A DNA stretch of 40,498 bases from a virus (taxonomy: Duplodnaviria > Heunggongvirae > Uroviricota > Caudoviricetes), in IMG/VR virus record IMGVR_UViG_2734482533_000012; one strand, given 5' to 3'. Both the position numbers and the translations under genes were made by a program. This document shows positions 1 through 40,498 of this stretch, piece after piece. The notes below the pieces were generated by a model that was not told the DNA's origin, made no database searches, and saw nothing but the letters and a program-made list of their open reading frames with translations. The first letter of the stretch is position 1; each line of letters opens with the position of its first letter.

Positions 1-63
1 CGTGGACTTCAGGTTGTCCTTCGCTTCGCGCGGGGTATGCCCCTTACTGCTGCCTTTACCCAT
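1..63 (-). CDS. J: Tail tip / host-specificity protein J, N-terminal 21 codons (rest lies beyond the window start)
   Basis: Reverse complement of 1-63 reads MGKGSSKGHTPREAKDNLKST, the lambda J N-terminus as I recall it; start codon at 61-63. Confidence 0.8.
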   Translation of the reverse strand, partial: MGKGSSKGHTPREAKDNLKST

Positions 64-123
64 TCCTCACGCTCCATAAACGACAAAACCGCCCGCAGGC
101 GGTTTCTCATAAAACATTTTGCA

Positions 124-646
124 TCAGCGACCAATCACCACAACCTGACCACCATCCCCTTCGTCTGCCGTGCTGATCTCCTGAGAAACCACACGTGACC
201 CCACGCGCATTTCCCCGTACAGAACAGGCAGAACATTACCCTGGGCAACCATGTTATCCAGTGACGAGAAATACGTGTTCTGTTTGCCGTTATCTGTACT
301 GGCTGCCGTGGGCGTCCTGGCTTTCGGTGCCAGCATCTGCGCCACACCACCCAGGATCATACTGGCCCCTGCTGCATACATACCCGATACAGCCGCGGCC
401 CCCAGCCAGCCCACAGGGTTCCACCATGCCACCGCAATCAGCGCCGCACCCAGCACCGCCTGAAACACACCGCCACTTTTGGCACCCGCCAGACGCGGAA
501 CGATGTGGATCACGGCACCATTTGCCAGCGGTTCATTAAGACGGGCAGATAATTCATTTTCGCCTGCATCACGCCCGGCAATGCGCACCTGATACCAGCC
601 GTCGCTCAGTTTCTGACGAAATGCCGGGAGCTGTGTGGCCAGTGCC
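124..646 (-). CDS. I: Tail assembly protein I, C-terminal part (5' end lost in the assembly gap)
   Basis: Translation ...ALATQLPAFRQKLSDGWYQVRIAGRD...GEMRVGSRVVSQEISTADEGDGGQVVVIGR matches lambda gpI from memory; the ORF runs into the N-run. Confidence 0.8.
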
Positions 647-896
647 NNNNNNNNNNNNNNNNNNNNNNNNNNNNNNNNNNNNNNNNNNNNNNNNNNNNNN
701 NNNNNNNNNNNNNNNNNNNNNNNNNNNNNNNNNNNNNNNNNNNNNNNNNNNNNNNNNNNNNNNNNNNNNNNNNNNNNNNNNNNNNNNNNNNNNNNNNNNN
801 NNNNNNNNNNNNNNNNNNNNNNNNNNNNNNNNNNNNNNNNNNNNNNNNNNNNNNNNNNNNNNNNNNNNNNNNNNNNNNNNNNNNNNNNNNNNNNNN
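647..896. other. Assembly gap (250 N)
   Basis: Uninterrupted run of n characters; the X-run in the supplied 385-aa translation shows K and I are fused artificially across it. Confidence 0.99.
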
Positions 897-1281
897 AAGC
901 GTCCCGGAACAGCGTGTAACAGTCCGTCACCCCGTGCTCAAAGCGCCGCCCGGTGAGATGCGGCACACAGCGGAACTTGTGAATCGCCCCGCGGCAGACC
1001 AGCCACCACGACAAATCACTCTGCACCTGCAGCCGCCGGTCGGCCTCACTCAGCCAGGGCAGACCACCGGGGTGGCTGTGGACCAGCGCCACAATCTCAC
1101 CCTGCATCTCTGCCTGCAGCCAGTCCTCCGGAGCCATCCGGAAATACTCCTCCGGCTCACCGGAAATATTCACGCAGGGAAAATATCTTTCCCCCTCCGG
1201 TGTTCTCACCACGAAGCCGCACGACTCCGCTGGCGCACATCGCCGGGCGTGCGCCAGAATCGCTGATTCTGTCTGTGTCAT
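897..1281 (-). CDS. K: Tail assembly protein K, N-terminal part (3' end lost in the assembly gap)
   Basis: Translation MTQTESAILAHARRCAPAESCGFVV...VALVHSHPGG...HLTGRRFEHGVTDCYTLFRDA matches lambda gpK from memory. Confidence 0.8.
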
Positions 1282-1286
1282 GGGAT

Positions 1287-1985
1287 TTACTGCGAAAGTT
1301 TGTTAATGGAAAGGAAGCCGCCAAAGTTGCCGACGTTATTGCGGAACTTACAACCGCTCAGGCATTTGCTGCATTTATCCTTCGTGATATCGGACGTTGG
1401 CTGGTCATATTCATCCGCGACAGCCGGACCGTGATAACCGCACTCATCACCGCGATAGGTCCAGGTGCAGGTATTAGCAAGCATGATGCGCCCCGGAAAA
1501 ACAGCGCCGTCCGTTTCCGTCGGCGTGGACAGTACAAAGGAGGCACTGACCGCGCTCAGTTCGCTGCACTGCTCAATACGCCAGCGGCTGATCACCTCCT
1601 GCTCCGGATCGGCGTCACTGTTTCCGTTGACGAAGTTCACCGCATCCAGAAAACGGGCGTAAACCTTACGCCTGACCACCGTTCCGCCGACCAGACTCTG
1701 CAGGTCTTCCGCCATCCCGGTGACCATGCCGTGCAGATTAGAGACTTTCAGCGTTGGCCTTGCACTGGCACCTTTGCCGTTCATCTCAAATCCACTCCCC
1801 TGAATGGGATAGGCCTGATACTGCCGACTCTGCCAGGTGACAGACTCTCCTTTCTCGTTCTGCTCATTGCAGAAAAAGTAGCGATCCCCGCCTACCTCGG
1901 TCAGGTCGATTTCCCAGAGCACCACGCTGGCCGACTGCTCCGCACGAATGCATTCATTCAGCGTTTCCTGTTGTATGTCCTGCAT
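1287..1985 (-). CDS. L: Minor tail protein L
   Basis: 232-aa translation [33 protein letters not shown]... is near-identical to lambda gpL over its length, from memory. Confidence 0.9.
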   Translation of the reverse strand: MQDIQQETLNECIRAEQSASVVLWEIDLTEVGGDRYFFCNEQNEKGESVTWQSRQYQAYPIQGSGFEMNGKGASARPTLKVSNLHGMVTGMAEDLQSLVGGTVVRRKVYARFLDAVNFVNGNSDADPEQEVISRWRIEQCSELSAVSASFVLSTPTETDGAVFPGRIMLANTCTWTYRGDECGYHGPAVADEYDQPTSDITKDKCSKCLSGCKFRNNVGNFGGFLSINKLSQ

Positions 1986-2323
1986 CAGATCACCACTTCG
2001 TCAAACTGACACGAAAAATCGGTATAGGTGATATGTTCTGTCGCTGACCACGTTCGACACACCACTCTGATTTTTCTGTTAATACCCGGCGGGCGCCAAA
2101 AAAAAGATTTATAGCCTTCATGCCGGGCTAAAAATTTTTCAAATGAATCACGTTCATTCGCCTCAACTTTGAAATCACAGGTGAAAACGCGCAGAGAATG
2201 ATTAAGTCCATTTGGACTTCGTTGCTCATAACCATCACCAAATCTTACAGTTTTTATCGATGGTTTATTTTCTGTTTTCATTCCATCCTCTGGTAACCAG
2301 TGAAATTCTTCCGTATTAGCCAC
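1985..2323 (-). CDS. M: Minor tail protein M
   Basis: 112 aa with RFGDGYEQR...[13 protein letters not shown]...F..QFDEVV matching lambda gpM; its stop overlaps the L start (ATGA), suggesting translational coupling. Confidence 0.8.
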
Positions 2324-5300
2324 TTAACATTCCCCCATCACGTCGCATATTTAACAGATTGCCCTGCACCCGCTGATCAACCATCCCCATAAGTGCTTTT
2401 ATTGCCTGAGGGCCAATCTCTCCATTCTGGCCGTCATTTTGAATAGTGATTTGGTATACAGGGGCATAGGTAATATCTCCGCCTCCATTACCACTTTTAC
2501 TATTAATAGCTCTGACACCAAGAGAACCATCGGAAGTTCGTGTTAATGGCATAATGGCTTCCGGTCCAGCCTCACCAAAAACACCAGCCCCTTTTGCAAA
2601 AGCAAAAAATTGCGGGGAATCATAAATACCGTTCGAATACGTGCTCAATGACGGAGACTCATAAACACCGCCCTTTGCATTCGGAATAAATTTACTAATA
2701 GCACTCCCGATAGTTCCTAAAATCCCCCCAGAAGAACTGTTACTAATGCTGTCGAAAATCCCAGTAATTGAAGCCTTTAATGCTATTCGACTAAGATCCG
2801 AAATCACGGAAGTAGCGAAAGAACGAAAATTTGCCTTGCCTGTCGTGACAAAATCACCCAGCGCATCGGTCATCCCATCAAACATCTGAGTCGTGGTTGA
2901 TTTTATCTGCTCACTGATATCCTTAGTGTCATCCAGCCAGTTATTGAATCCCTGGGAGGCACCACTAACCCAGTCTCCTGCCTGAATATCGAGCTGCTCG
3001 TTTTTCTGTCTGACAATTTCTTTTTCCCGTTCCAGAGCATCATTCAGAGCCTGCATTTTCTCTTGAAAAACATGATCTGACATTCCACGGGATTTATCTG
3101 CATAGTCACGTTCAAGTTGCAGACGCTGATTGTTATATCCATGTTCAATCCGCAGTAATTCCTGCTGGCGTTGCTGATTTTTATCGCCAACCCCATAACC
3201 AGCAATCTGAATATCATACCCCTGCTGACGATTATCAATCGAAGCCTGCAATGAATCACGCCATGCTGTTATTTCGGCGGATTCCTTGATTAGCCTGTTA
3301 TTTTTTTCAATCGCAACATTTTTCTCCATCAACGTGGTTATTTCTTCCCGGTGTAAGAGAAGCGATTTCTGATCCTGGGTTAATTTCGATGATGGTCGTG
3401 ACTCTAGGTCGGCAATCCGCTGACGCCACTTAACCAGTTCCTGTTCAGAGGAACTTAATTTAACGGTCAACTCAGCTTGTGAACTTAGTAACGCATTCTG
3501 TTGATTCAGATGATCAATCATTCGTTGGGCTGCATCATCAGAATAACCTTTCGCCTTTGGTTGCTTTGGATCTTTATAACGCTCATTTATTTGAGCGATA
3601 AGATTATTATATTCTTCCTTTGAATACTGATTCTTTAGCTTTTCCAGTTTTGCAAGTTCACTAGCTCTCTGCTGCTCCCGGGTCTGATATTGTTTTGAAA
3701 AGGCATCTGCTCTCTGTCTGAGTTCAATTCCTTCCTGTTGTCGCTTGTTGTAATCGTTTATTGATGAATTTAGTACGTCCTGAGCAATTTTTTCTGCTTG
3801 AAGTACGCCCAATTGCTGCTTTAATCGTGCCAGCCTTTTATTTTGAGCTCCGCCATCTCCAATGCCACCTAACCCGAAAACTCCGGGTCGGGTATTTTTT
3901 TCTATTTCATCAATTTGACGGAGAACATCTGAGATTTTTTGATCAAGGGAGGCCTCACGGCCAATATCCAGCATGGAATCCCATGCCCATTTTGCGGAGT
4001 CTGCGACAGCTTTCCATGCAGTCTCAAGATAACCAAGATTTTCTTTAATCTGGTTGGTGCGCTGGATCATTGAGGATGAGTATTCTTCTGTCGCAATGCG
4101 GGCGGCCTCCTGCTGGTTCCCTTCATCCTGTAGCGCCTTAATCTGGTTATAAGTCGCAAGTGTCAGAAAATGGTACTGATCATTAAGTTTTGATATGGCA
4201 CTGACAGGATCCTTTGCAATTTCATTGAAGTCATTAACCAGTTGTTCGGTTGATATTCCTGTTACTTCGCTCGTTTTTACTATCGCTGTCGTCACTTGCT
4301 CCAGCGAACTGCTCGCTACCTTTCCCGAACGCACAAGCTGATTTAATACTGCCGCCGCAGCACCAGTTGTCGAATCAGCCGCATTCCCGGCACGTTGAGC
4401 TATATCGCCCAATTGCCCGCTGGTTGTCCCCAACTGATTTCCGGTAAGAATAAGAGATTTATTAAATTCGTCCTGCTCCTGAGAGCCTTTATAGTAAGCC
4501 AGTCCTAAGACCCCAACGGCTGCTGCGGCCAGGGTAAAAGGATTAATTAATCCCAGCACATAAGAACCTACACCTTTGATCGCCGGGCCAATCCCACCGA
4601 ACATATCTTTTAGCTGGCCGCCCTGCTGCATTAACACCATAAATGGCGACTGACCAGTGGACAACCCAACAACAATATCCGTCATTTGTACAGGCAACAT
4701 GCGCATAGCAAAAGCCGTTTGTTTTGCCGACATTCCGGTTTTGCTTAATTGTGATTGAGTAACCTCAAGCTCACTCCGCATAGCACGAAGTTTTCCAGAA
4801 AGCTCCTCATACATTTCAGGAGAAAGCATCCCCTTAGCTTTTGCTTCATTGAGCTGTTTCTGTTGTTCTACCAGACGATTAAAAGCAGTTCCGACAGGAT
4901 CAAGTTGAGCAATCAGACGTTGCAAAGCAACAACCTGTTCATCATGCGCTTTTGCTGCTTCTCGCTCTGCCTGAGCCTCTCCGGTAAGCTCTCGCCGTGT
5001 TTCCTGTATTTTTCGGCTATAATTCTCAAACTGAGAACCATTTATTTTCCCGGATGCAAACGCAGCATTAAGTTCATCATGCTGTTGTTCAAGATTTCTT
5101 AGCGCCGCAGCCAGAGGGTCGATCTTGTCCAGCATTCTTTGAAAGGCCTGAGCCTGCGCTTCCTGCTGGGCGGCAGCAAGTTTTCCGGCCTTCTCGGCTT
5201 CTCTCTGCGCTTGCGCAACCCCGCTCAATTCCTCTGTGGTTTCATTAAGTTTACGGACAAGAAATTCATATTCTTCTTTATCAATAAGCCCTTTATCGAA

Positions 5301-5549
5301 AAATTTCTTTAATTCAGAATAGCGTCGACCGACAGTATCAATTGCGGCACCAACTGGATCAATAGCTGCTTTTAATTTTGCGAGCGCGTTCTTCTCATCT
5401 TCTGTTGCCTTAGTCACTTTCCCTGCGCTATTTGCAGCAGTTTCCCCAGCCTGCGTCATTTTGACTAATGAGGAGGTCAGATTGTCAGCATTATTTTTCG
5501 CTCCAGTGCTATCAATAATTATTGCGAGACGCGAGGTTTGCTCTGCCAT
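2316..5549 (-). CDS. Tail tape measure protein
   Basis: 1077-aa ORF with a long coiled-coil-like N-terminal half, sitting between the G/G-T chaperone and gpM as tape measure genes do; AGGAG ribosome-binding site upstream. Confidence 0.85.
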
Positions 5550-5565
5550 TTATTAAAACTCCTGA

Positions 5566-5597
5566 CAACAAAAAACCCACCGCGAAGTGGGTTTCAG
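5566..5597 (-). terminator. Hairpin plus U-run immediately upstream of the tape measure start (possible attenuator)
   Basis: Minus strand reads ACCCACUUCGCGGUGGGU followed by UUUUUUG; stem ACCCAC/GUGGGU at 5575-5592, U-run at 5569-5574, in the 165-bp gap between T and the tape measure gene. Confidence 0.4.
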
Positions 5598-5714
5598 GCG
5601 ACATAATAGTAGATATAGCGATTACGAGGCCACGCAATGCTTTTCTCCAGGAGCATCATCGATTTAATTAAAGACACCATCACATCTCTGTAACAGAGTG
5701 TACGTAATTAACAA

Positions 5715-6484
5715 CTACACACACTGCTCCTGAAAATACTGGTCATCCAGTGCAAAGATCACTGCTTCAAATTCATCGCGCTCAATCAATACCGGATGAG
5801 TGGCTAAATATTCATTTATCTCTGTCAGAGATAAAGGCAAAGGCACCCCAGCCATTCCAGCATAACGTCGGGCACGGGATATTACCGAATAGGCGTACAA
5901 CAACTCCTTAAGCACCGGGTCTATTTCTGGTTCCGGTATCGGTGGCAACCTGAGTTTTTCTCGCTTCCATCTTGCCTTTTCCCCCCTTTCTCCCCCGAAC
6001 TCCGATAACCACCGCTGGGCAGCTATGGCTTTTTTATCGTATCCTGCTTCTGCTGCTCTTTACCCTGGGCGATGCTGGCTGCTTCTGCAAGGATCTGCCA
6101 GTACAACTCTGGATTCTGCTTAAGCAGCGCGATCCCTCGTTCTGCCGTATATTCCAGTGCAACCTCAACACCATTAACCAGTTCACCAACCCCTTTCCAG
6201 TCTTTCAGCAGATAACGAGCGGCATTATCAATGAGTAAATCATCAACAGAATCCACCTCGGAAACCTTTGAAATATCAAACTCCTTCGTTCCGACGTGCA
6301 AACTGGCATCCATTTTCTCAATGTGGCGACGGATTAATGCATTACGGGAGCGATACTGATCGTTATCGCTGCTTGCCACCAACAGTTTTAACCCGTCTAC
6401 AGGTTTTAAGTCCTTCATTGGCGTAAACCAGCGTTCTCCACCAATGATAATTTTCTGATTAAGAATAAACATCCATAACCTCAT
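5715..6484 (-). CDS. Tail assembly chaperone G-T fusion made by programmed -1 frameshift
   Basis: The -1 frame is open from the slippery site at 6029-6035 down to 5715 (...KKAIAAQRWLSEFGGERGEKARWKREKLRLPPIPEPEIDPV...), directly upstream of the tape measure gene as in lambda G/G-T. Confidence 0.65.
6023..6484 (-). CDS. Tail assembly chaperone (gpG-like)
   Basis: 153-aa ORF between the major tail gene and the frameshift site; acidic protein in the expected position. Confidence 0.65.
   Translation of the reverse strand: MRLWMFILNQKIIIGGERWFTPMKDLKPVDGLKLLVASSDNDQYRSRNALIRRHIEKMDASLHVGTKEFDISKVSEVDSVDDLLIDNAARYLLKDWKGVGELVNGVEVALEYTAERGIALLKQNPELYWQILAEAASIAQGKEQQKQDTIKKP
6029..6035 (-). promoter_or_regulatory. 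Slippery heptamer A_AAA_AAG for the G to G-T -1 frameshift
   Basis: Minus strand reads ACG AUA AAA AAG CCA UAG; the heptamer sits 2 codons before the G stop and the -1 frame continues open for about 100 codons. Confidence 0.65.
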
Positions 6485-6532
6485 TCAATGCGTCCCCCTG
6501 TAGGGCAGTACCACAGGAGGAATAACGGAAAA

Positions 6533-7495
6533 TCAACTAATCGCCTCAGCACTGGCTTTTGCGATCACGGCAGCCGGGGAATTTTTTTTTCTGGTTATCG
6601 TAGGTGCTTCATCTGCTGCGGTAATGCTCAATTGAACCTGGATAATGTCGCTATTACCCCCATCAGGCCATTCACCTGACACCTGAACCTTCGGGAAACT
6701 GAAAGTGTATGCCCCCTCTCCATTCGAAAGCGTGAAGCTGAACGGAACTGTTTCTCCAGTCAGTGTTTTACTCCAGATTTCCCACGCGGCTTTAGACCAT
6801 GAAAGCGTCACCGTACCGGACGGTGTAAAAGTAGTCGGAATATTTGCTCCTGCATAAGGCGAGCCAGTCCCGATACAACGCTGTGTCTGGAGTTTGTTAT
6901 CGAACTGAATATCAAAACTGTCGATACAAAAACCGTTACCTCCGGCAACACCATTCAGGCTTACTGCTGAAACCTCCTTAAACGAATAACGTAGCTTTCC
7001 TGCACTATCCACAGGTTCGCCTTTGATAAAATTCGTATCATCGGCCTTTGATTCCCAGTCCAGTCCGGCAAAGGTTACGGTCGCTGTAATATCGCCGTCG
7101 TTAGGGATCTGCATTTTCCATGAGCCAACCTGCGCTCCTCTGACGACAGAGGCAATTCCGACATCGGACGCATAGGTCGCCAGAGAAAATGTTATTCGCT
7201 CATTCCCCATTGTCAGAGAATCGCCTGACCATTCCGCGCCGAAACAGGATGCAAGAAAATCATCATGTTGACCCCAGCGAAATTTGGTACCAACATCACC
7301 GCCGACATCCACAGTGCCAGGCGTCGCCCCCTGAGCCATCCGGGAGCCACCAATCTCATTATTTTCGCCTTTATTCTGGGTGGGTTTTACTCCCCAGCTT
7401 GTGCGTTTTAATAAACTCCAGTCACCACTTGCTGGCGTAGTGCCTGCAACCGTCTCCCGGATAAATGCCGAGATAACCTTTGCACCTGAACTCAC
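6533..7495 (-). CDS. Major tail (tube) protein
   Basis: 320-aa ORF directly upstream of the chaperone/tape measure block; Gly/Thr/Ser-rich composition typical of tail tube proteins. Assigned by position. Confidence 0.65.
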   Translation of the reverse strand: MSSGAKVISAFIRETVAGTTPASGDWSLLKRTSWGVKPTQNKGENNEIGGSRMAQGATPGTVDVGGDVGTKFRWGQHDDFLASCFGAEWSGDSLTMGNERITFSLATYASDVGIASVVRGAQVGSWKMQIPNDGDITATVTFAGLDWESKADDTNFIKGEPVDSAGKLRYSFKEVSAVSLNGVAGGNGFCIDSFDIQFDNKLQTQRCIGTGSPYAGANIPTTFTPSGTVTLSWSKAAWEIWSKTLTGETVPFSFTLSNGEGAYTFSFPKVQVSGEWPDGGNSDIIQVQLSITAADEAPTITRKKNSPAAVIAKASAEAIS

Positions 7496-7521
7496 AGGAG
7501 CCTCCTATGTCATTAATTGCG

Positions 7522-7914
7522 CTAGAGCGCGCGATATGGAATTTGAAGATTAAGCTGGAACCAGCCATTCTTTTCGCCAACGGCTATTGAGGAAACAGCC
7601 TGGTAACTGAGACGATCGTCATCCTGAAACTCAAACAGTTCCCGCAATTTATCGGCTGTCTCAGTAATGAGTTTTGAACCAGAACCTGCGGGGACAAATA
7701 ACTGAATAATGATTATCCCCGTGCGATAAACAACCGGCCCCGCGCCAATTTCATTAACTCCAGCCTGCCCGGGAATATTACTTAACCGCGCCCAGATTAA
7801 CTTACCGGAAGGATCGAACGTTGGCCCGTTCGGATACAATACGTCTTTTCCATCAATAATCGTCTGTGCCGTCATTCTGGAAATAACCGTATTTCTGATT
7901 TCAGTAAACTTCAT
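7522..7914 (-). CDS. Tail completion / tail terminator protein (by position)
   Basis: 130-aa ORF immediately upstream of the major tail gene. Confidence 0.45.
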   Translation of the reverse strand: MKFTEIRNTVISRMTAQTIIDGKDVLYPNGPTFDPSGKLIWARLSNIPGQAGVNEIGAGPVVYRTGIIIIQLFVPAGSGSKLITETADKLRELFEFQDDDRLSYQAVSSIAVGEKNGWFQLNLQIPYRAL

Positions 7915-8291
7915 TTGTAAGCCTGTAAAACACCATGAAAAGCGTTGGCATACACGCCAGTTGGCGCTTGTTGTGAATGACCGTTTTCAAGAGCCTCTGC
8001 ATAAGGAAGGTTATTCTGGATATAAATAACCCCGTAATTTGCAGCTTTCGAAATAACCCCGATCCCACGCTGAACAGCAATCGTACCGTTCGGATCCACG
8101 TTATCAGATATACCAAAATCGGGATGCTGTAACGACACCAGGTTGTTATTTCTGAAACGTCCGGTATCAACCGGAGCAGCAATATCAATAGCAGTAAGAA
8201 TCTGCATAGCGATGTAGCGAATCTTCAGCCCTACATCTTCCTCAATCATCCCGGCAAATATTGACGGTTCTATATCCCATGCCTTTGCCAT
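7911..8291 (-). CDS. Head-tail joining protein (possibly HK97 gp10-like)
   Basis: 126-aa ORF in the head-tail connector block; 4-bp overlap with the downstream gene. Confidence 0.45.
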   Translation of the reverse strand: MAKAWDIEPSIFAGMIEEDVGLKIRYIAMQILTAIDIAAPVDTGRFRNNNLVSLQHPDFGISDNVDPNGTIAVQRGIGVISKAANYGVIYIQNNLPYAEALENGHSQQAPTGVYANAFHGVLQAYK

Positions 8292-8675
8292 TTACGCTCT
8301 CCTTAACTGGATAGAGTAAACTGATGCGGAAGGATCTACACTTGCTGTAATTACCTCGTATCGTTGTAACTGCCTTGATACAGGATCATAAATCTCAATA
8401 ATATGGTCGACAGCTGGTTTATCCGTAACCTCGCATACCAGAGCGGTTAATTTAAGGTCACCATGCAAAATATTAATCCCATCAATTCTGCCCAGCTTAT
8501 AACGTGTCAACACGCCTCGCCCGGTATAGATTGCGGTGGATTCGCCGCCAGTTTCCGTCACAGGATCCCAGTGCCGGTGCGTAACGTAAGAACCAGAAAA
8601 ATCACTCACGGCGTCCGCTAAATCCTCATCAAAAGCAGCGGCAACCTCTGACTGAATCTCTTCACGAAGCCCCAT
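8292..8675 (-). CDS. Head-tail adaptor / head closure protein (by position)
   Basis: 127-aa ORF in the head-tail connector block. Confidence 0.45.
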   Translation of the reverse strand: MGLREEIQSEVAAAFDEDLADAVSDFSGSYVTHRHWDPVTETGGESTAIYTGRGVLTRYKLGRIDGINILHGDLKLTALVCEVTDKPAVDHIIEIYDPVSRQLQRYEVITASVDPSASVYSIQLRRA

Positions 8676-9070: not shown

Positions 9071-9073
9071 GTG

Positions 9074-9250: not shown

Positions 9251-9260
9251 ATGCCCCCCA

Positions 9261-9285
9261 TTAAAAATGGGGCCGAAGCCCCGTT
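9261..9285 (-). terminator. Intrinsic terminator / attenuator just after the major capsid gene
   Basis: Minus strand reads GGGGCUUCGGCCCC (9269-9282) followed by AUUUUUAA; located 8 bp downstream of the capsid stop. Confidence 0.55.
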
Positions 9286-13902: not shown

Positions 13903-13904
13903 AA

Positions 13905-31567: not shown

Positions 31568-31579
31568 GGAAACTTTTGC

Positions 31580-32002
31580 TTAATGAACAATGACAGAATC
31601 GTCGGAAGACCCGCCGCCGCTGAAATGCGCTTTCCGGTAAACGGCTTGGACTGCATCATCATGCGCATCAATTGCCGTACTTAACGCTTCCTGCGCCGCC
31701 AGTAATGCACGGCGTTCCAGGGTATCGAAGATGCAGAGTCGGTGACGCAGCTCGCGCGGAAGGATTGCCAGAATTGCTGGGATCAGCTTCTGAATTTTTT
31801 CTCTTTGCGTTTTCGTTTCACCTTTCAACCAACGGTGATAGATATTCTGCTGATTATTCCAGTCCTTGCCTGGTACCAGGGGCAATTCGCCGCCCCCCTG
31901 GCGCAGATATTCTTCAGTAATGGCATTGGCTACCCATGCCTGCCCTTTTTCGGCTGCCAGGGCTAACAACACTGACTCGATGTGCTCATGCTTGATTTTC
32001 AT
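31580..32002 (-). CDS. ydaT: YdaT (toxic Rac protein repressed by RacR)
   Basis: 140-aa ORF immediately downstream of ydaS, 4-bp overlap. Confidence 0.75.
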   Translation of the reverse strand: MKIKHEHIESVLLALAAEKGQAWVANAITEEYLRQGGGELPLVPGKDWNNQQNIYHRWLKGETKTQREKIQKLIPAILAILPRELRHRLCIFDTLERRALLAAQEALSTAIDAHDDAVQAVYRKAHFSGGGSSDDSVIVH

Positions 32003-32253
32003 GAATCAACTCCCATCAGCTTTTTCGTAGTAGTTTTATTTCTGCCAATAGTTAAAATTACATCAGCAGAAAATAATCCGTTTGATGCATGAGCGATTTT
32101 TTCAGCGTAATTTGTTTCGCCGGTATATTCTGTGCGAGGCAATTTTCCGTTATCCATCCATTTGTAGATTGCTCTTTGGCTGACACCACAAACGTCGGCC
32201 ACAACAGAAACGCGAACAGTTTTGATTACATCTTCAAGTGTTTTCTGGTTCAT
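31999..32253 (-). CDS. ydaS: YdaS, Cro-like HTH protein
   Basis: Start taken at MNQKTLEDV... (GAGG ribosome-binding site), because the longer track ORF would overlap divergent racR; HTH VADVCGVSQRAIYKWM. Confidence 0.7.
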   Translation of the reverse strand: MNQKTLEDVIKTVRVSVVADVCGVSQRAIYKWMDNGKLPRTEYTGETNYAEKIAHASNGLFSADVILTIGRNKTTTKKLMGVDS

Positions 32254-32314
32254 ATCACCCTCACAATGTGAACTTTGAGTACATGCTATAACAGAACTGA
32301 CAGTACATTCAAGA
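32254..32314. promoter_or_regulatory. Divergent racR / ydaS control region with two 15-bp direct repeats (candidate operators)
   Basis: GAACTTTGAGTACAT at 32270-32284 and GAACTGACAGTACAT at 32294-32308, in the 61-bp gap between the divergent repressor and cro-like genes. Confidence 0.4.
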
Positions 32315-32752
32315 GTGAATATCATTGAACTTATGGTTCATGAAGATAAAGCGCGTAAAGAGTTCGCCAGTAGGCTTGCGCTAGCCTGTGAAAACGCTGG
32401 TTATGAACAACATGGAAGGCAGGCAGAAATTGCCCGTCGAATGAAATTAACACCAAAAGCGGTTAGCAAATGGTTTAATGGCGAAACAATTCCTCGCCGA
32501 GAGAAATTAAGGGAATTAGCAACACTCATTGGAACAACACCAACCTATCTTTTGGGAGAGGATACAGAAGAAAGTGGACAGGTACGTTTCTATCAGGAGT
32601 TAAATCCAAGACAAAAAATCATCATTGACCTTCTGGACGAGCTCCCTGACAGTGAGACAGATGAACTTTTAAAAACTCTTGAGGAGAAAAAACAGAAGTA
32701 CAATGCAATTTACGAAGAGCTAGCACGAAAGAAAAAACAAAAAGCCTCTTAA
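32315..32752 (+). CDS. racR: Prophage repressor RacR (XRE/cI-type HTH)
   Basis: 145 aa from GTG; HTH (QAEIARRMKLTPKAVSKWFNGE); divergent from ydaS as in Rac. Confidence 0.7.
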   Translation: MNIIELMVHEDKARKEFASRLALACENAGYEQHGRQAEIARRMKLTPKAVSKWFNGETIPRREKLRELATLIGTTPTYLLGEDTEESGQVRFYQELNPRQKIIIDLLDELPDSETDELLKTLEEKKQKYNAIYEELARKKKQKAS

Positions 32753-33042
32753 ACCAGCATAAATCCGGTAGCGTCCCCCTCCGGGTTTGTGCTTCACTTT
32801 ATCCCATCTCATTTTTTTACACACAAAATGTACTTATAGTACTTTACATCAATGAACACAAAGTACATTATATACCTACCAACCCACCCCGCCCCACAGA
32901 ACGCAGGGCAATACTTCGAGTTACCAGGCAGTGGTCAGGGGTTAAGTAGCCAGCCCGAGGCGTATGAACATGACGGCAGGGTTCAGATTTTGCAGTGCAG
33001 CAGGTTTCAGTTCCGCCACCCGGCGTTAAGGGGAGAGATAAG

Positions 33043-33177
33043 ATGGTGCATTACGAAGTAGTTCAGTATTTGATGGATTGTTGCGGTATCACTTACAACC
33101 AGGCTGTGCAGGCTTTACGCAGCAACGACTGGGATCTCTGGCAGGCAGAAGTCGCTATACACAGCAACAAGATGTGA
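33043..33177 (+). CDS. ydaF: YdaF (small Rac protein)
   Basis: 44 aa from ATG with AAGGGGAG upstream: MVHYEVVQYLMDCCGITYNQAVQALRSNDWDLWQAEVAIHSNKM. Confidence 0.6.
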   Translation: MVHYEVVQYLMDCCGITYNQAVQALRSNDWDLWQAEVAIHSNKM

Positions 33178-33187
33178 GATTCGCAAA

Positions 33188-33343
33188 ATGCAAAAAATCG
33201 ACCTCGGCAACAACGAATCCCTGGTGTGCGGCGTGTTCCCCAACCAGGATGGAACGTTCACTGCCATGACGTATACCAAAAGCAAAACATTTAAAACCGA
33301 AACTGGTGCGCGCCGATGGTTGGAGAAGCACACAGTAAGCTAA
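33188..33343 (+). CDS. ydaG: YdaG (small Rac protein)
   Basis: 51-aa ORF MQKIDLGNNESLVCGVFPNQDGTFTAMTYTKSKTFKTETGARRWLEKHTVS; under the 60-aa cutoff of the supplied track. Confidence 0.5.
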   Translation: MQKIDLGNNESLVCGVFPNQDGTFTAMTYTKSKTFKTETGARRWLEKHTVS

Positions 33344-33828
33344 CGATTAAAACGTCTACTCCTGCTGTTCCAGAATAACTTCATAAAATGGGAGTATTTT
33401 TCGGTGACGAGATAATAAGAACAGTTTGCGCTATCACTCTGATGTTGAATGATGCCCTTCCGTTCTAATTTTTTCATAACCGGGTTACGGCAAGGAGAAG
33501 TGATAATAAGATTTCCTGTTTTAAGGAAATCTTTAAATACAGCGATTTCTTTCTCAGATAAACGAAGCAATACTCGTTGCTCTGGTAGTAATGAATAATG
33601 CTTTTGAATATGTGCTCGCAATCTTGAGAAGGAAATGGCGACCACGAAAGAAAAGGCAAAAACGATAATCTGAAAGAGCCAAGGTATTTCAGTATAAGCA
33701 TTGAATGCGACAGTAAACTCTTTCGGTATCAGCCAGAGAGTGAGACCAAAAATGATAATCGTATACATAAGTATTTCGAGTGGCTCGTTAGCAAAAAGTT
33801 TCAACAATGGAGTAAATACATCCAACAT
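33340..33828 (-). CDS. sieB: Superinfection exclusion protein SieB
   Basis: 162 aa from MLDVFTPLLKLFANEPLE...; matches Rac SieB from memory; two TM segments. Confidence 0.85.
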   Translation of the reverse strand: MLDVFTPLLKLFANEPLEILMYTIIIFGLTLWLIPKEFTVAFNAYTEIPWLFQIIVFAFSFVVAISFSRLRAHIQKHYSLLPEQRVLLRLSEKEIAVFKDFLKTGNLIITSPCRNPVMKKLERKGIIQHQSDSANCSYYLVTEKYSHFMKLFWNSRSRRFNR

Positions 33829-34269
33829 ATCAATAACTCTCAACTGTAAGGGTATTGAAATGTTAACACAAGCTCTCGCTGTAGGGGTATAGCCGAGACC
33901 ACCGAAGCCCGGAGGTGGTGAAATAAAACCGGGCACAACACGAAGGCGCATTTCCGATATCCATAAAGAGTCGGTCTTGTCTGTTAAATTTAAATGGTGG
34001 GAGTGCGCCTCCGGTTGTAAATAACGACATTGCTGTGTGTAGTCCTGGCGGCATCAGTTTTTTTCTTGAAGTTCGGCTGATGTCCGCCCTTTTTAAAGTG
34101 AATTTTGTGATGCGGTGAATGCGGCTAAGCGCACGTGGCACAGTTAAAAGTCATGTTAGTCCTTATTGGTTTGGGTGGGAAAGCCGACTGTAATTGTTAA
34201 CTGGTTGCAGTCACCTGGAGGCACCAGGCACCGCATCAACAAAGTTCATTTGTAAAAATGGAGATAATT

Positions 34270-34491
34270 ATGATTGCACATCACTTCGGAACTGATGAAA
34301 TACCACGTCAGTGTGTGACTCCTGGCGATTATGTTCTTCATGAAGGCCGGACATATATTGCCTCGGCAAACAATATTAAAAAGCGAAAACTATATATTCG
34401 TAACCTGACCACAAAAACATGCATTACTGACCGCATGATTAAAGTCTTCCTCGGTCGTGATGGTTTACCTGTAAAGGCGGAGTCATGGTGA
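34270..34491 (+). CDS. kilR: KilR, FtsZ-targeting cell division inhibitor
   Basis: 73 aa from [30 protein letters not shown]... with GGAG upstream; matches Rac KilR from memory. Confidence 0.85.
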
Positions 34492-34661
34492 TGACTAAGA
34501 AAATAAAATGTGCTTACCACCTTTGCAAAAAAGACGTTGAAGAAAGCAAAGCTATTGAAAGAATGCTTCACTTCATGCACGGGATTTTATCAAAAGACGA
34601 ACCGAGAAAATATTGCAGTGAAGCTTGTGCCGAAAAAGACCAGATGGCACATGAACTTTAA
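34491..34661 (+). CDS. ydaE: YdaE (small Cys-rich Rac protein)
   Basis: 56 aa [56 protein letters not shown]; start overlaps the kilR stop (TGATG). Confidence 0.65.
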   Translation: MTKKIKCAYHLCKKDVEESKAIERMLHFMHGILSKDEPRKYCSEACAEKDQMAHEL

Positions 34662-34735
34662 TTAATTGACTATTCGAAACTGAATTTATGCCAGAAATGG
34701 CAGGTATTCGCTCAACCTTAATTAAGGAGAAAAAC

Positions 34736-35011
34736 ATGATTACCAATTATGAAGCCACTGTTGTAACTACCGATGACATTGTTCACGAGGTGAATCTGGA
34801 AGGAAAGCGCATTGGCTACGTAATTAAAACAGAAAATAAAGAAACCCCATTCACTGTGGTTGATATCGATGGTCCATCAGGCAACGTAAAAACACTTGAT
34901 GAAGGTGTCAAAAAAATGTGCCTGGTGCATATCGGAAAGAATCTGCCCGCAGAAAAAAAAGCCGAATTTCTGGCAACTCTAATTGCAATGAAATTAAAAG
35001 GTGAAATCTGA
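34736..35011 (+). CDS. racC: RacC
   Basis: 91 aa from MITNYEATVVTTDDIVHEV... with AAGGAGA upstream; matches Rac RacC from memory. Confidence 0.8.
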   Translation: MITNYEATVVTTDDIVHEVNLEGKRIGYVIKTENKETPFTVVDIDGPSGNVKTLDEGVKKMCLVHIGKNLPAEKKAEFLATLIAMKLKGEI

Positions 35012-35112
35012 AAGAAATAGCCTGCGTATGGCGCAGGCTATGAACAGTGTGTATCCGGCAAGATCATTCACTGAACAAAACGAATTTTAATCTGAGTTGA
35101 GGTTAAAAAACA

Positions 35113-37713
35113 ATGAGCACAAAACCACTCTTCCTGTTACGGAAAGCGAAAAAATCATCCGGTGAACCTGACGTCGTCCTGTGGGCAAGCAACGATTTTG
35201 AATCGACCTGTGCCACTCTGGACTACCTGATCGTTAAGTCAGGTAAAAAACTGAGCAGCTATTTTAAAGCTGTTGCCACGAATTTTCCTGTCGTTAATGA
35301 CCTGCCCGCTGAAGGTGAGATCGATTTTACCTGGAGTGAACGCTATCAACTCAGCAAAGACTCCATGACATGGGAACTAAAACCGGGAGCAGCACCAGAC
35401 AACGCTCACTATCAAGGCAATACCAACGTCAACGGCGAAGACATGACTGAGATTGAGGAGAATATGCTACTCCCAATTTCTGGCCAGGAACTGCCCATTC
35501 GTTGGCTTGCTCAACACGGCAGCGAAAAACCGGTAACGCACGTTTCACGCGACGGACTCCAGGCATTACACATTGCTCGGGCTGAAGAACTACCGGCTGT
35601 TACTGCCCTGGCTGTTTCCCACAAAACCAGCCTGCTCGACCCGCTGGAAATTCGCGAACTCCACAAACTGGTTCGTGACACTGACAAAGTTTTCCCTAAT
35701 CCTGGTAATTCAAACCTGGGACTGATAACTGCTTTTTTCGAAGCATACCTGAACGCTGACTACACCGATCGAGGACTGCTGACAAAAGAGTGGATGAAGG
35801 GTAATCGTGTTTCACACATCACTCGCACGGCTTCCGGTGCTAATGCTGGCGGCGGAAACCTCACCGATCGCGGCGAAGGTTTCGTACACGATCTGACGTC
35901 ACTGGCGCGGGACGTAGCCACTGGCGTACTGGCCCGTTCAATGGATCTGGACATCTATAACCTTCATCCGGCACACGCTAAACGCATTGAGGAAATTATC
36001 GCTGAAAATAAACCGCCCTTTTCTGTTTTCCGCGACAAATTCATCACCATGCCTGGCGGGCTGGATTATTCCCGCGCCATCGTGGTTGCGTCCGTAAAAG
36101 AAGCACCAATTGGGATCGAGGTCATCCCCGCGCACGTCACTGAATATCTGAACAAAGTACTGACTGAAACCGATCATGCCAACCCTGATCCGGAAATCGT
36201 GGATATTGCCTGCGGTCGCTCCTCTGCCCCGATGCCGCAGCGAGTAACAGAAGAAGGAAAACAGGATGATGAAGAAAAACCGCAACCATCTGGAACAACG
36301 GCAGTTGAACAGGGAGAGGCTGAAACAATGGAACCGGACGCAACTGAACATCATCAGGACACGCAGCCGCTGGATGCTCAGTCACAGGTAAATTCTGTTG
36401 ATGCGAAATATCAGGAACTGCGGGCAGAACTCCATGAAGCCCGGAAAAACATTCCATCAAAAAATCCTGTCGATGCCGATAAATTGCTTGCTGCATCACG
36501 TGGTGAATTTGTTGACGGAATTAGCGACCCGAACGATCCGAAATGGGTAAAGGGGATCCAGACTCGCGATTGTGTGTACCAGAACCAGCCAGAAACGGAA
36601 AAAACCAGCCCGGATATGAATCAACCTGAGCCAGTAGTGCAACAGGAACCGGAAATAGCCTGCAATGCCTGCGGCCAGACTGGCGGGGATAACTGCCCTG
36701 ACTGTGGTGCGGTGATGGGCGACGCAACATACCAGGAAACATTCGATGAAGAGAGTCAGGTTGAAGCTAAGGAAAATGATCCGGAGGAAATGGAAGGCGC
36801 TGAACATCCGCACAATGAGAATGCTGGCAGCGATCCGCATCGCGATTGCAGTGATGAAACTGGCGAAGTCGCAGATCCCGTAATCGTAGAAGACATAGAG
36901 CCAGGTATTTATTACGGAATTTCGAATGAGAATTACCACGCGGGTCCCGGTGTCAGTAAGTCTCAGCTCGATGACATTGCTGATACTCCGGCACTGTATT
37001 TGTGGCGTAAAAATGCCCCCGTGGACACCACAAAGACAAAAACGCTCGATTTAGGAACCGCTTTCCACTGCCGGGTACTTGAGCCGGAAGAATTCAGTAA
37101 CCGCTTTATCGTAGCACCTGAATTTAACCGCCGGACAAACTCCGGAAAAGAAGAAGAGAAAGCGTTTCTGAGGGAATGCGCAAGCACAGGAAAAACGGTT
37201 ATCACTGCCGAAGAAGGCCGGAAAATTGAACTCATGTATCAGAGCGTTATGGCTTTGCCGCTGGGGCAATGGCTTGTTGAAAGCGCCGGACACGCTGAAT
37301 CATCAATTTACTGGGAAGATCCTGAAACAGCAATTTTGTGTCGGTGCCGTCCGGACAAAATTATCCCTGAATTTCACTGGATCATGGACGTGAAAACTAC
37401 GGCGGATATTCAACGATTCAAAACCGCTTATTACGACTACCGCTATCACGTTCAGGATGCATTCTACAGTGACGGTTATGAAGCACAGTTTGGAGTGCAG
37501 CCAACTTTCGTTTTTCTGGTTGCCAGCACAACTATTGAATGCGGACGTTATCCGGTTGAAATTTTCATGATGGGCGAAGAAGCAAAACTGGCAGGTCAGC
37601 TGGAATATCACCGCAATCTGCGAACCCTGGCTGACTGCCTCAATACCGATGAATGGCCAGCTATTAAGACGTTATCACTGCCCCGCTGGGCTAAGGAATA
37701 TGCAAATGACTAA
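35113..37713 (+). CDS. recE: Exodeoxyribonuclease VIII (RecE)
   Basis: 866-aa ORF; the C-terminal third matches the RecE nuclease domain and the N-terminal region is acidic and low-complexity; matches E. coli RecE from memory. Confidence 0.9.
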
Positions 37714-38515
37714 GCAACCACCAATCGCAAAAGCCGATCTGCAAAAAACTCAGGGAAACCGTGCACCAGCAGCAATTAAAAATAACGACGTGATTAGTTT
37801 TATTAACCAGCCATCAATGAAAGAGCAACTGGCAGCAGCTCTTCCACGCCATATGACGGCTGAACGTATGATCCGTATCGCCACCACAGAAATTCGTAAA
37901 GTTCCGGCGTTAGGAAACTGTGACACTATGAGTTTTGTCAGTGCAATCGTACAGTGTTCACAGCTCGGACTTGAGCCCGGTAGCGCCCTCGGTCATGCAT
38001 ATTTACTGCCTTTTGGTAATAAAAACGAAAAGAGCGGTAAAAAAAACGTTCAGCTAATCATTGGCTATCGCGGCATGATTGATCTGGCTCGCCGTTCAGG
38101 TCAAATCGCCAGCCTGTCAGCCCGTGTTGTCCGTGAAGGTGACGAGTTTAATTTCGAATTTGGCCTTGATGAAAAGTTAATACACCGCCCAGGAGAAAAC
38201 GAAGATGCCCCTGTTACCCACGTCTATGCTGTCGCAAGACTGAAAGACGGAGGTACTCAGTTTGAAGTTATGACGCGCAAACAGATTGAGCTGGTGCGCA
38301 GCCAGAGTAAAGCTGGTAATAACGGGCCGTGGGTAACTCACTGGGAAGAAATGGCAAAGAAAACGGCTATTCGTCGCCTGTTCAAATATCTGCCCGTATC
38401 AATTGAGATCCAGCGTGCAGTATCAATGGATGAAAAGGAACCACTGACAATCGATCCTGCAGATTCCTCTGTATTAACCGGGGAATACAGTGTAATCGAT
38501 AATTCAGAGGAATAA
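37706..38515 (+). CDS. recT: Single-strand annealing recombinase RecT
   Basis: 269 aa from [23 protein letters not shown]...; start overlaps the recE stop; matches E. coli RecT from memory. Confidence 0.9.
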
Positions 38516-38570
38516 TTCAGCCTGGCGGTGTAATGCACCGCCAACTTGAAATATTTTTATGAGAAAAATT

Positions 38571-38720
38571 ATGAGATATGACAATGTTAAACCATGTCCA
38601 TTTTGTGGTTGTCCATCAGTAACGGTGAAAGCCATTTCAGGATATTACCGAGCGAAGTGTAACGGATGCGAATCCCGAACCGGTTATGGTGGAAGTGAAA
38701 AAGAAGCACTCGAACGATGA
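38571..38720 (+). CDS. ralR: Restriction-alleviation protein Lar / RalR-like (zinc-ribbon)
   Basis: 49-aa ORF MRYDNVKPCPFCGCPSVTVKAISGYYRAKCNGCESRTGYGGSEKEALER with CxxC...CxxC; may be shorter than the K-12 protein. Confidence 0.6.
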   Translation: MRYDNVKPCPFCGCPSVTVKAISGYYRAKCNGCESRTGYGGSEKEALER

Positions 38721-38757
38721 AATAAACGAACCACTGGAAATAATAATGGAGGTGTTC

Positions 38758-38946
38758 ATGTATAAAATTACCGCCACTATTGAAAAGGAAGGTGGCACTC
38801 CTACTAACTGGACAAGATATTCAAAATCTAAACTAACGAAATCAGAATGCGAAAAAATGCTCTCAGGTAAAAAAGAAGCAGGCGTTTCCAGAGAGCAGAA
38901 AGTAAAACTGATAAATTTTAATTGCGAGAAACTTCAGTCCTCGTGA
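38758..38946 (+). CDS. ydaC: YdaC-like small protein
   Basis: Start at MYKITATIEKEGG... preceded by GGAGGTG; the track ORF begins further upstream at 38686. Confidence 0.55.
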   Translation: MYKITATIEKEGGTPTNWTRYSKSKLTKSECEKMLSGKKEAGVSREQKVKLINFNCEKLQSS

Positions 38947-39021
38947 ATTGCATTGTATTCAAATTAAAACTTCATAGCTGATTATTAATAATCAACATCG
39001 GGCGTCAATTTAAGTCTAACA

Positions 39022-39261
39022 TTGGCGCCTGCCAGAGGTGATGCGATGGCACAAGTAATCTTTAATGAAGAGTGGATGGTTGAATACGGCCTGATGCTTC
39101 GCACTGGTCTGGGGGCCAGACAAATTGAAGCATACCGCCAGAACTGTTGGGTGGAAGGCTTCCACTTCAAACGAGTATCTCCTTTAGGGAAGCCAGACAG
39201 TAAGCGAGGGATTATCTGGTATAACTATCCAAAGATAAATCAGTTTATCAAAGACTCATGA
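39022..39261 (+). CDS. xisR: Excisionase
   Basis: 79-aa ORF immediately upstream of the integrase with a 1-bp gap. Confidence 0.7.
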
Positions 39262-39262
39262 T

Positions 39263-40498
39263 ATGTCTAAATTACCAACAGGTGTCGAGATTCGAGGTAA
39301 ATACATTCGCATCTGGTTCATGTTTCGAGGAAAACGATGTCGGGAAACATTGAAAGGCTGGGAGGTTACTAACAGTAACATTAAAAAAGCCGGGAATTTA
39401 AGAGCGTTGATAGTTCATGAAATCAATTCCGGTGAGTTTGAGTATTTAAGACGTTTTCCCCAGTCCAGCACTGGGGCAAAAATGGTGACAACGAGGGTCA
39501 TAAAAACGTTCGGGGAGCTTTGTGATATCTGGACAAAAATTAAAGAAACAGAGTTAACAACAAACACAATGAAGAAAACGAAATCACAATTAAAAACACT
39601 CAGGATAATAATTTGTGAGAGTACTCCGATATCGCATATTCGTTATAGCGATATCTTAAACTACCGGAATGAACTGCTGCATGGAGAAACGCTTTACCTG
39701 GATAATCCAAGATCCAACAAAAAAGGAAGAACCGTGCGCACAGTTGATAACTATATCGCCCTGCTCTGTTCGTTGTTACGTTTTGCGTATCAGTCGGGAT
39801 TTATATCAACCAAACCATTTGAAGGAGTAAAGAAATTACAGAGAAACAGAATAAAGCCTGACCCGTTATCTAAAACAGAATTCAATGCATTAATGGAAAG
39901 TGAAAAAGGACAGAGCCAGAACTTGTGGAAATTTGCCGTATACTCCGGGCTTCGTCACGGGGAACTGGCTGCTCTGGCGTGGGAGGATGTGGATTTCGAG
40001 AAGGGAGTTGTGAATGTCAGAAGAAACCTGACGATACTGGATATGTTCGGTCCCCCAAAAACAAATGCGGGGATCCGGACGGTAACACTACTGCAGCCTG
40101 CTCTTGAAGCACTGAAGGAGCAATACAAACTGACCGGGCATCATCGCAAAAGCGAAATCACTTTTTATCATCGGGAGTACGGCAGAACCGAAAAGCAAAA
40201 ACTGCATTTTGTTTTCATGCCCAGAGTGTGTAACGGAAAACAGAAACCTTATTACTCGGTAAGCAGTTTGGGTGCGAGATGGAATGCAGCAGTAAAACGT
40301 GCTGGTATTCGCCGCCGTAATCCGTACCATACGCGGCATACTTTTGCCTGCTGGCTGTTGACGGCAGGAGCGAACCCGGCGTTTATAGCCAGCCAGATGG
40401 GGCATGAAACTGCGCAGATGGTGTATGAAATTTACGGTATGTGGATTGATGACATGAACGACGAACAGGTAGCCATGTTGAATGCGCGGTTATCGTAG
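39263..40498 (+). CDS. intR: Tyrosine site-specific integrase (IntR-like)
   Basis: 411 aa, complete with TAG at 40496-40498; C-terminal catalytic region with R..HTRHT..W....G and a Tyr near the C-terminus; last gene before the presumed att site outside the window. Confidence 0.9.
   Translation: MSKLPTGVEIRGKYIRIWFMFRGKRCRETLKGWEVTNSNIKKAGNLRALIVHEINSGEFEYLRRFPQSSTGAKMVTTRVIKTFGELCDIWTKIKETELTTNTMKKTKSQLKTLRIIICESTPISHIRYSDILNYRNELLHGETLYLDNPRSNKKGRTVRTVDNYIALLCSLLRFAYQSGFISTKPFEGVKKLQRNRIKPDPLSKTEFNALMESEKGQSQNLWKFAVYSGLRHGELAALAWEDVDFEKGVVNVRRNLTILDMFGPPKTNAGIRTVTLLQPALEALKEQYKLTGHHRKSEITFYHREYGRTEKQKLHFVFMPRVCNGKQKPYYSVSSLGARWNAAVKRAGIRRRNPYHTRHTFACWLLTAGANPAFIASQMGHETAQMVYEIYGMWIDDMNDEQVAMLNARLS

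Follow-up and report, generated by a model that had tools for sequence, protein, structure and literature searches.

Several full-size relatives of the defective Rac prophage carried by Escherichia coli K-12 have been described. The O157 prophages CP-933R/Sp10 are full-size Rac relatives located at ttcA according to Casjens (2003) as quoted in PMC4632033 and PMC6379469, and in the statement quoted in PMC4632033 only their leftmost 8 kb is 99% identical to K-12 Rac. KingRac (E. coli IGC_RcoliRes_1.1, NZ_CP054662.1; Frazao et al. 2019) forms particles, lysogenises K-12, is weakly induced by mitomycin C and replaced the Rac prophage of K-12 in the mouse gut (PMC6731689), and was later reported to mediate the transfer of flanking DNA (PMC12251178). 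Rac-SA53 (KU052037; Jobling 2016, cited in PMC5917428) carries LT-II toxins (PMC5917428). Here the analysis was extended to a 40,498-base stretch of Caudoviricetes DNA, IMG/VR record IMGVR_UViG_2734482533_000012 (hereafter the window), which an earlier note had described as an apparently intact relative of K-12 Rac. The element from which it comes is, with a high degree of confidence, the undeleted form of the lineage that contains K-12 Rac, as judged from alignment and gene content. The same body of comparisons makes it very probable that this element is a genetically complete lambdoid temperate prophage of ~52.5 kb in ttcA, lambda-like in outline.

Among complete genomes, the window was best matched by E. 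coli NCTC10444 (NZ_LR134092.1, 2723180–2763809; 99.9% identity), with ~21 substitutions and one 1-bp indel between them; the parts of the element beyond the window were judged from the NCTC10444 annotation only. A blastn alignment of the whole window to K-12 (NC_000913.3, with Rac at 1411899–1434958) gave four colinear blocks of 98.3–99.9% identity – window 32877–40498 with K-12 1419618–1412000 (98.7%), 29485–32008 with 1423201–1420678 (98.3%), 17932–20362 with 1425630–1423200 (99.3%) and 4615–6374 with 1427388–1425629 (99.9%). These blocks abut in K-12, showing that three segments are gone from it. The first covers 9,122 bp (window 20363–29484, junction at K-12 1423200/1423201), the second 11,557 bp (window 6375–17931, junction at K-12 1425629/1425630), and the third extends leftwards from window position 4614 over 8,368 bp of NCTC10444, from the tape measure gene into lom. 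Both deletion junctions within the window display a 2-nt microhomology. At the protein level, 21 of the 23 K-12 Rac proteins tested were found in the K-12 order with 95–100% identity (IntR, XisR, RcbA, RalR, RecT, RecE, RacC, YdaE, KilR, SieB, YdaF, YdaG, YdaT, YdaU, YdaV, YdaW, RzoR, TrkG, YnaK, YdaY and YnaA), the remaining two, RacR and YdaS, having no match in the window in protein or nucleotide comparison. Identity, synteny, the deletion junctions and the open reading frames (ORFs) were all observed directly, and the K-12 Rac order that the earlier note had recognised in the early region was confirmed by the alignment.

In the late region, the markers rzoR, trkG, ynaK, ydaY and ynaA occur in the same order as in K-12 with 98.8–100% aa identity, and the K-12 late-region remnants align to the element at 99.3–99.9% identity. 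Specifically, the first 85 residues of K-12 YnaK (87 aa) are the start of a 262-aa ParB-like ORF, and K-12 YdaY (119 aa) corresponds to residues 38–153 of a 153-aa ORF with three foreign residues ahead. K-12 ydaW encodes the first 151 residues (~60%) of a 253-aa DUF1627 protein, to which a tail read out of frame from the Rz region is added; rzpR corresponds to the last 99 residues of the 154-aa Rz, and YnaA (ynaA/tmpR) is the first 312 residues of a 1077-aa tape measure protein. The ynaK and ydaY stumps of K-12 meet exactly at a deletion junction. The full-length versions of ynaK and ydaY announced for this element were verified by the PHROG profiles that their products cover, and trkG (18323–19780, minus strand), a cargo gene or moron for a 485-aa potassium transporter, is full length and 99.6% identical to K-12 TrkG. 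The proposal that the element displays what K-12 Rac has lost is thereby strongly supported, the remnants being nearly identical and the junctions clean.

Taken as a whole, the element shares with K-12 Rac the integrase, the excisionase, recET-kil-sieB, ydaT-U-V, Rz1, trkG and the start of the tape measure gene, with their order kept. K-12 Rac differs in being devoid of the nin/Q/lysis genes, of those for packaging, head and proximal tail, and of those for the distal tail, in carrying IS5 in lom, in having racR/ydaS rather than a repressor/cro pair of the type found in phage Tritos, in ending on the right with pinR-ynaE(-ynaM) rather than sitABCD, and in its longer ralR and rcbA. K-12 Rac would then have arisen from a nearly identical ancestor through three deletions (9.1, 11.6 and 8.4 kb), with the IS5 insertion, another immunity cassette and another right end as further differences. 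The features characteristic of the Rac lineage include full-length IntR and XisR (98.8% and 100% identical to K-12, respectively) and the ydaT-YdaU-YdaV block (99.2–99.6% aa identity to K-12), and the one that is absent is the RacR/YdaS immunity pair. As lambdoid phages exchange immunity cassettes, a non-Rac cassette affects the immunity type of the element and not its lineage. The description as a relative of K-12 Rac can therefore be sharpened to that of a close match to undeleted Rac, except for the repressor/cro cassette (32009–32876), which is unlike racR/ydaS.

In NCTC10444 the element is located between uspF and ttcA. The right edge of the window is the stop codon of intR, and ttcA begins 51 bp beyond intR in NCTC10444; the left edge falls 63 bases into J, of which 21 codons are kept. 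Beyond the left edge, J (1137 aa) is followed in NCTC10444 by a lom-type gene, a tail fibre gene of 3.07 kb, tfaR and then sitABCD. The 26-bp att core on either side of K-12 Rac, AAGAAAGAACAATACAA[C/T]CTGAACAA, recurs as a direct repeat at both ends of the NCTC10444 element with one mismatch, the copies being 52,493 bp apart and the right one 76 bp past the end of intR; both lie outside the window. With 52.5 kb from att to att and both ends outside, the window is estimated to contain ~77% of the element, from integrase to tail tip. The sitABCD iron/manganese transporter operon (NCTC10444 2711571–2715460; 3.9 kb) lies inside the prophage boundaries downstream of tfaR, in the place of K-12 pinR-ynaE-ynaM, and raises the att-to-att length to 52.5 kb. 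The window has a single run of N (250 N at 647–896), an assembly gap standing in place of 381 bp in NCTC10444, which conceals residues 129–247 of tail protein K and residues 1–9 of tail protein I, and both genes are intact in NCTC10444. The appearance of intactness thus holds as far as sequence goes and with the parts supplied by NCTC10444, the window not being the whole element.

The integrity of the genes was assessed by comparing the ORFs with the NCTC10444 annotation and by determining their coverage of PHROG and Pfam profiles. All NCTC10444-annotated ORFs are open in the window. Full-length products relative to the family profiles were obtained for the holin, endolysin, Rz, small and large terminase subunits, portal, MuF-like protein, scaffold, coat, four connectors, tail tube, G/GT, tape measure, M, L, Q-like, NinB-like and HNH proteins, YdaU, YdaV and YdaT. 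The sole frameshift detected is the programmed one in G/GT, and none is concealed by the gap, as K and I in NCTC10444 allowed to establish. Accordingly, the lysis, terminase, portal, capsid and lambda-type tail genes reported earlier are open and full length wherever they lie in the window, J and the fibre genes being outside it. The absence of disruptions other than the gap likewise stands for the essential late genes, but not for two accessory genes, ralR (W50*) and rcbA (R63*). In a comparison of the late genes with a 99%-identical copy, the dN/dS was 0.14 (74 synonymous and 35 non-synonymous differences), with most differences in gene L, a value that agrees with purifying selection although the differences are concentrated in that gene.

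The tail genes, all on the minus strand, are of the lambda type, with the G/GT frameshift, the tape measure and M-L-K-I-J (K, I and J being complete in NCTC10444). At the left edge are the first 21 codons of J (1–63), identical to the start of the NCTC10444 gpJ, from where the gene leaves the window. They are preceded by the last 173 of 182 aa of tail assembly protein I (124–646, C-terminus identical to the NCTC10444 protein) and the first 128 of 247 aa of tail protein K, a C40 peptidase (897–1281, N-terminus identical to the NCTC10444 protein). Next come the minor tail proteins L (1287–1985; phrog_18/4199) and M (1985–2323; phrog_14) and the tape measure protein (2316–5549; phrog_24). The tail chaperone G, which is the full-length ydaY product, is encoded at 6023–6484 and matches positions 13–149 of the 258 of phrog_313. 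A –1 slippery heptamer, A AAA AAG, is present in phase at 6029–6035 on the minus strand, just ahead of the G stop codon, and the shift to the 256-aa G-T fusion (5715–6484) lengthens the match from position 149 to 246 (13–246/258). Near-full to full-length PHROG matches identified the tail tube (6533–7495), tail terminator (7522–7914), tail completion/Neck1 (7911–8291), head closure Hc1 (8292–8675) and adaptor Ad1 (8675–9070) proteins.

The head and packaging genes, also on the minus strand, encode the coat (9293–10432; phrog_283), a scaffold-like DUF6651 protein (10531–11295; phrog_784/206), a MuF-like head morphogenesis protein (11400–12512; phrog_241), the portal (12496–13902; phrog_145), the large (13905–15206; phrog_2/10250/38319) and small (15187–16281; phrog_51) terminase subunits and a 69-aa protein (16285–16494; phrog_309), with a 58-aa protein (9074–9250) following the coat as in HK639. 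This lambdoid siphovirus (NC_016158) has the portal, MuF, scaffold, coat and 58-aa proteins in the same order and of the same lengths, with 50–75% aa identity, but has other terminase, connector and tube genes, another early region and another integration site, and a genome of 49.6 kb. The terminase of the element is related (~40–51% aa identity) to those of lytic siphoviruses, Salmonella phages SETP7 and wksl3 among them, a terminase group that we take as a sign of headful packaging.

The order of modules is that of lambdoid phages – int/xis, recombination, immunity, replication, nin/Q, lysis, packaging/head and tail. Integrase and excisionase adjoin a leftward early operon (recET, kil, sieB), and a divergent repressor/cro switch would govern this leftward recombination/kil/int operon and a rightward replication operon, the latter with the CII-like YdaT followed by the YdaU initiator and the YdaV DnaC-like loader. 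The nin-type region ends in a Q-like antiterminator, and Q-type antitermination would open a long late operon that takes in the lysis, packaging, head and tail genes. A putative leader containing a terminator would head this operon, ahead of holin, endolysin, Rz/Rz1, the trkG cargo, the ParB-like/glycosyltransferase pair, a terminase probably of headful type, an HK639-type head block presumably without need for a protease, and the lambda-type tail with its programmed G/GT frameshift. We infer that the element can excise, replicate and build particles; for the production of infectious virions the chances appear evenly balanced.

The immunity cassette comprises a DicA-like helix-turn-helix (HTH) repressor of 139 aa (32333–32752, plus strand), a cro-like HTH protein (31999–32325, minus strand) and, between the repressor and cro-like genes, three 17-nt operator-like repeats (32269–32342). 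The window at 32009–32876 has no similarity to K-12 racR/ydaS. Over 31979–33034, it shares 96.2% nt identity with the CI-Cro cassette of phage Tritos (OV696610; LF82 prophage 3), whose CI is matched by the repressor at 100% aa identity. Tritos is otherwise different, being Qin-like (dicB, dicF, ydfU, cold-shock cargo) with another integrase and other virion genes, and the cassette is a case of the Rac and Qin lineages having exchanged immunity cassettes. Tritos is released without induction and plaques on K-12, and its production did not rise upon ciprofloxacin or trimethoprim treatment (PMC9928086). By analogy, the regulatory switch of the element would be of a working type. Given that the repressors differ (RacR versus a Tritos-type CI), K-12 should lack immunity to the element. 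This cassette, the missing ends of the element and the commonness of its type in databases were matters on which the earlier note was silent.

Several observations weigh against a fully functional prophage. The window is without J (bar 21 codons), lom, the tail fibre genes, tfaR, sitABCD and both att cores; missense or regulatory defects would be invisible to the sequence methods used; and a literature search found no experiment on this element type. KingRac and Rac-SA53 share with the element the early region only and have other virion modules, so their behaviour is not transferable, and KingRac, with its lambda-type head and packaging genes, no trkG and another virion module, was not retained as experimental proof. 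Two further candidates were rejected as isolated phages. The group of vB_EcoS-666R9, -673R7, -613R10 and -683R6 (ON4705xx–ON4706xx; bioRxiv 10.1101/2022.06.29.498070) consists of PHASTER predictions ending at contig ends and provides no particle evidence, and Salmonella phage SPF_0923 (ON032529.1) is a 35-kb piece of E. coli-type chromosome, which spans Rz, the late genes and sitABCD and reaches into uspF, ompN and ydbK. From att to att the element measures 52.5 kb, more than the genome of HK639 (49.6 kb), the closest phage that has this coat; with the 3.9-kb sitABCD cargo, the genome might no longer fit into the head. As for induction, a domain search of the repressor found no S24 peptidase domain (HTH only), no LexA box (CTGT-N8-ACAG) was found in the window, and the gene table contains no recognisable antirepressor (no Ant/Rha). 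Derepression is probably not via RecA-mediated repressor cleavage. These two absences of an S24 domain and a LexA box, together with the lack of over-induction of Tritos, which has the same repressor, by ciprofloxacin or trimethoprim, render mitomycin C induction doubtful and less promising than had been assumed.

The alternative that survives best is that the element has intact ORFs but is grounded, being kept for its cargo (trkG, sitABCD, recET, sieB) and transmitted mostly vertically without infectious particles, for example because of a 52.5-kb genome above head capacity or of missense or regulatory defects. We consider this a serious possibility, with a likelihood somewhat short of even. 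It would account for the presence of the element at the same locus in hundreds of genomes with ~99% identity, and its length relative to HK639, the premature stops in ralR and rcbA, the failure to find a recognisable SOS input and the absence of an isolated phage with this terminase and head combination from the phage collection searched are in line with it. On the other hand, none of the ~30 late genes is interrupted or shortened, the dN/dS is low, the site of the programmed frameshift has been conserved, NCTC10444 has both att cores, and the head block and the immunity cassette each function in isolated phages (the plaque-forming HK639 and Tritos, respectively).

That the element is the same phage as KingRac, Rac-SA53 or CP-933R/Sp10 is very improbable, despite the shared integrase family, ttcA site and early region. 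KingRac is alike in being full-size at ttcA, in its Rac-type early genes including ydaF/G and ydaT-U-V, and in its DUF1627, DUF977, DUF1367-DUF1364-DUF1133(Q) trio and lambda-type tail-tip genes. It is different in its lambda-type terminase, portal, S49 protease, decoration and capsid genes, its transfer RNA (tRNA) genes and its other holin and lysozyme, and is without trkG, the ynaK/glycosyltransferase pair and the HK639-type head. With these different late genes in KingRac, K-12 Rac is not a reduced version of that type. Rac-SA53 has the ttcA site and keeps the order of intR, recET, kilR, ydaT-U-V-W and irsA-ybcO-Q; its alignment spans 40% of the right half of the window, with 92% identity. 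It differs by a baseplate-type (myovirus) late region, an LT-IIa and pertussis-like toxin cargo, dicA/dicC, IS1 and the absence of trkG and ynaK. Gene content thus rules out KingRac and Rac-SA53, whereas CP-933R/Sp10 is set apart by the published description only, in the quoted part of which identity to K-12 Rac at the 99% level is confined to 8 kb. On these comparisons, the ttcA prophages would be mosaics with at least three late modules, and among the elements compared only the type represented by the window fits all K-12 remnants. The idea that the element only looks complete because several lambdoid prophages were assembled into a chimera, across repeats or the gap, could draw on the draft state of the assembly and on a run of N in tail genes common to many lambdoid prophages, but is scarcely credible, as the same arrangement is uninterrupted in complete genomes, NCTC10444 is 99.9% identical from one end of the window to the other, and each of the best-matching complete genomes holds one window half as a single uninterrupted piece.

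In a survey of 5426 complete E. coli genomes, 691 (~13%) contained at least 80% of window 1–20000 in one place. At least 80% of window 20001–40498 was found in 60 complete E. coli genomes, the nin cargo and immunity cassette being more variable there. The prophages of the vB_EcoS-666R9 group share the late region at ~99% identity and 63–69% of the early half at 96–97%, and all have trkG, ParB and RalR with a different nin-region cargo. The type of element is therefore ordinary and already catalogued, and does not constitute a new kind of element.

In the early region, the genes for excisionase (xisR, 39046–39261) and integrase (intR, 39263–40498) are on the plus strand. They are adjoined by the early-left operon (33043–38515), which consists of ydaG, ydaF, sieB (on the minus strand), kilR, ydaE, racC, recE (35113–37713) and recT (37706–38515), in the same order as in K-12 and with 97.7–100% identity. 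The replication genes are on the minus strand and were assigned by PHROG matches and K-12 homologues – the CII-like YdaT (31580–32002), the replication initiator YdaU (30710–31567), the DnaC-like loader YdaV (29957–30703) and the full-length 253-aa YdaW/DUF1627 protein (29173–29934), which together are 95–99.6% identical to the K-12 proteins – and are followed by a Ren-like DUF977 protein with a PHROG match (28741–29157, minus strand). Between recT and xisR, ralR (38571–38720, plus strand) encodes 49 aa versus 64 in K-12 and rcbA (38758–38946, plus strand) 62 aa versus 69, and the RalA antisense antitoxin small RNA (sRNA) (38764–38942, minus strand; Rfam RF02694, 225 bits) is complete. In this lineage, the toxin half of the type I pair may thus lack activity.

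The lysis genes, on the minus strand, encode the holin (20876–21091; phrog_20/9876), the endolysin (20379–20876; phrog_7), Rz (19918–20382; phrog_13 1–154/154) and, embedded in Rz, Rz1/rzoR (19977–20162; 100% identical to K-12 RzoR). Upstream are two tandem paralogues with a TolA C-terminal domain (21343–21717 and 21889–22317, minus strand; PF06519), both of which span phrog_5772, so that the tolA pseudogene flag given by PGAP to the second ORF in NCTC10444 looks like an artefact. The interval that separates the Q-like gene from the TolA-like ORFs holds a full-length match to the STnc100 sRNA (22428–22614, minus strand; Rfam RF02076, 86.6 bits), with a promoter-like site (22991–22962, minus strand) and a strong terminator-like hairpin (22934–22915, minus strand) upstream of it. 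These two sites come from a consensus scan only, and such matches in the window are no more numerous than in shuffled sequence. STnc100 is possibly part of the late leader transcript. A scan of the window for tRNA genes found none.

The nin-type region contains, on the minus strand, the genes for the Q-like antiterminator DUF1133 (23362–23904; phrog_753 1–184/189), DUF1364/HNH (23901–24191; phrog_131) and DUF1367/NinB-like (24191–24790; phrog_319) proteins. The DUF1971 gene (25604–25942, plus strand; PF09313) is on the strand opposite to its neighbours, and 18 bp upstream of it is the sole indel relative to NCTC10444, a difference of one T within the T run at 25586, which probably stems from homopolymer sequencing. 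Inside the segment lost from K-12 are also two adjacent phage ORFans of 333 aa (26563–27564, minus strand; phrog_16994) and ~340 aa (27580–28671, minus strand; phrog_17908), which showed only sub-threshold domain hints (GNAT; HEPN/RES N-terminal domain) and no PADLOC, NCBIfam or PDB match. PADLOC models run against the ORFans, sieB and the others tested gave only weak HTH matches and a match common to ParB proteins and methyltransferases. The two ORFans could be cargo or a defence pair.

Directly upstream of the terminase genes, at 16472–18185 on the minus strand, are the full-length ParB-like YnaK (17397–18185; phrog_620 3–217/217, PF02195) and a 310-aa TET-associated-type glycosyltransferase (16472–17404; PF20691, E 3.7e-34, 4–205/205; phrog_842). 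The PGAP pseudogene flag on ynaK in NCTC10444 looks like an annotation artefact, the ORF spanning the PHROG profile end to end. Elsewhere among phages, ParB and glycosyltransferase genes of this sort are found alongside 5-methylpyrimidine dioxygenases (PMC13229309). The element itself has neither a dioxygenase nor a methyltransferase, and a PDB sequence search of the glycosyltransferase gave no match. That the pair is a working DNA-modification module, glycosylating phage DNA without a 5-methylpyrimidine dioxygenase in the element, is a speculative and unlikely proposal. If true, the substrate base would be one undescribed for this enzyme family, and K-12 ynaK would be what is left of a system for DNA hypermodification.

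Descriptions of full-size Rac relatives go back to the O157 genomes, and the exact type examined here occurs in about one in eight complete E. coli genomes; among the papers searched, none reconstructed a Rac ancestor with this head module. The comparison retraces at base level the reduction of the best-known cryptic prophage in K-12, and functions can be assigned to the stumps that K-12 retains as y-genes and their like – ynaK, ydaY, ydaW, rzpR and ynaA. The element is useful as a reference for the annotation of K-12 Rac, and helps both Rac annotation and the design of experiments.

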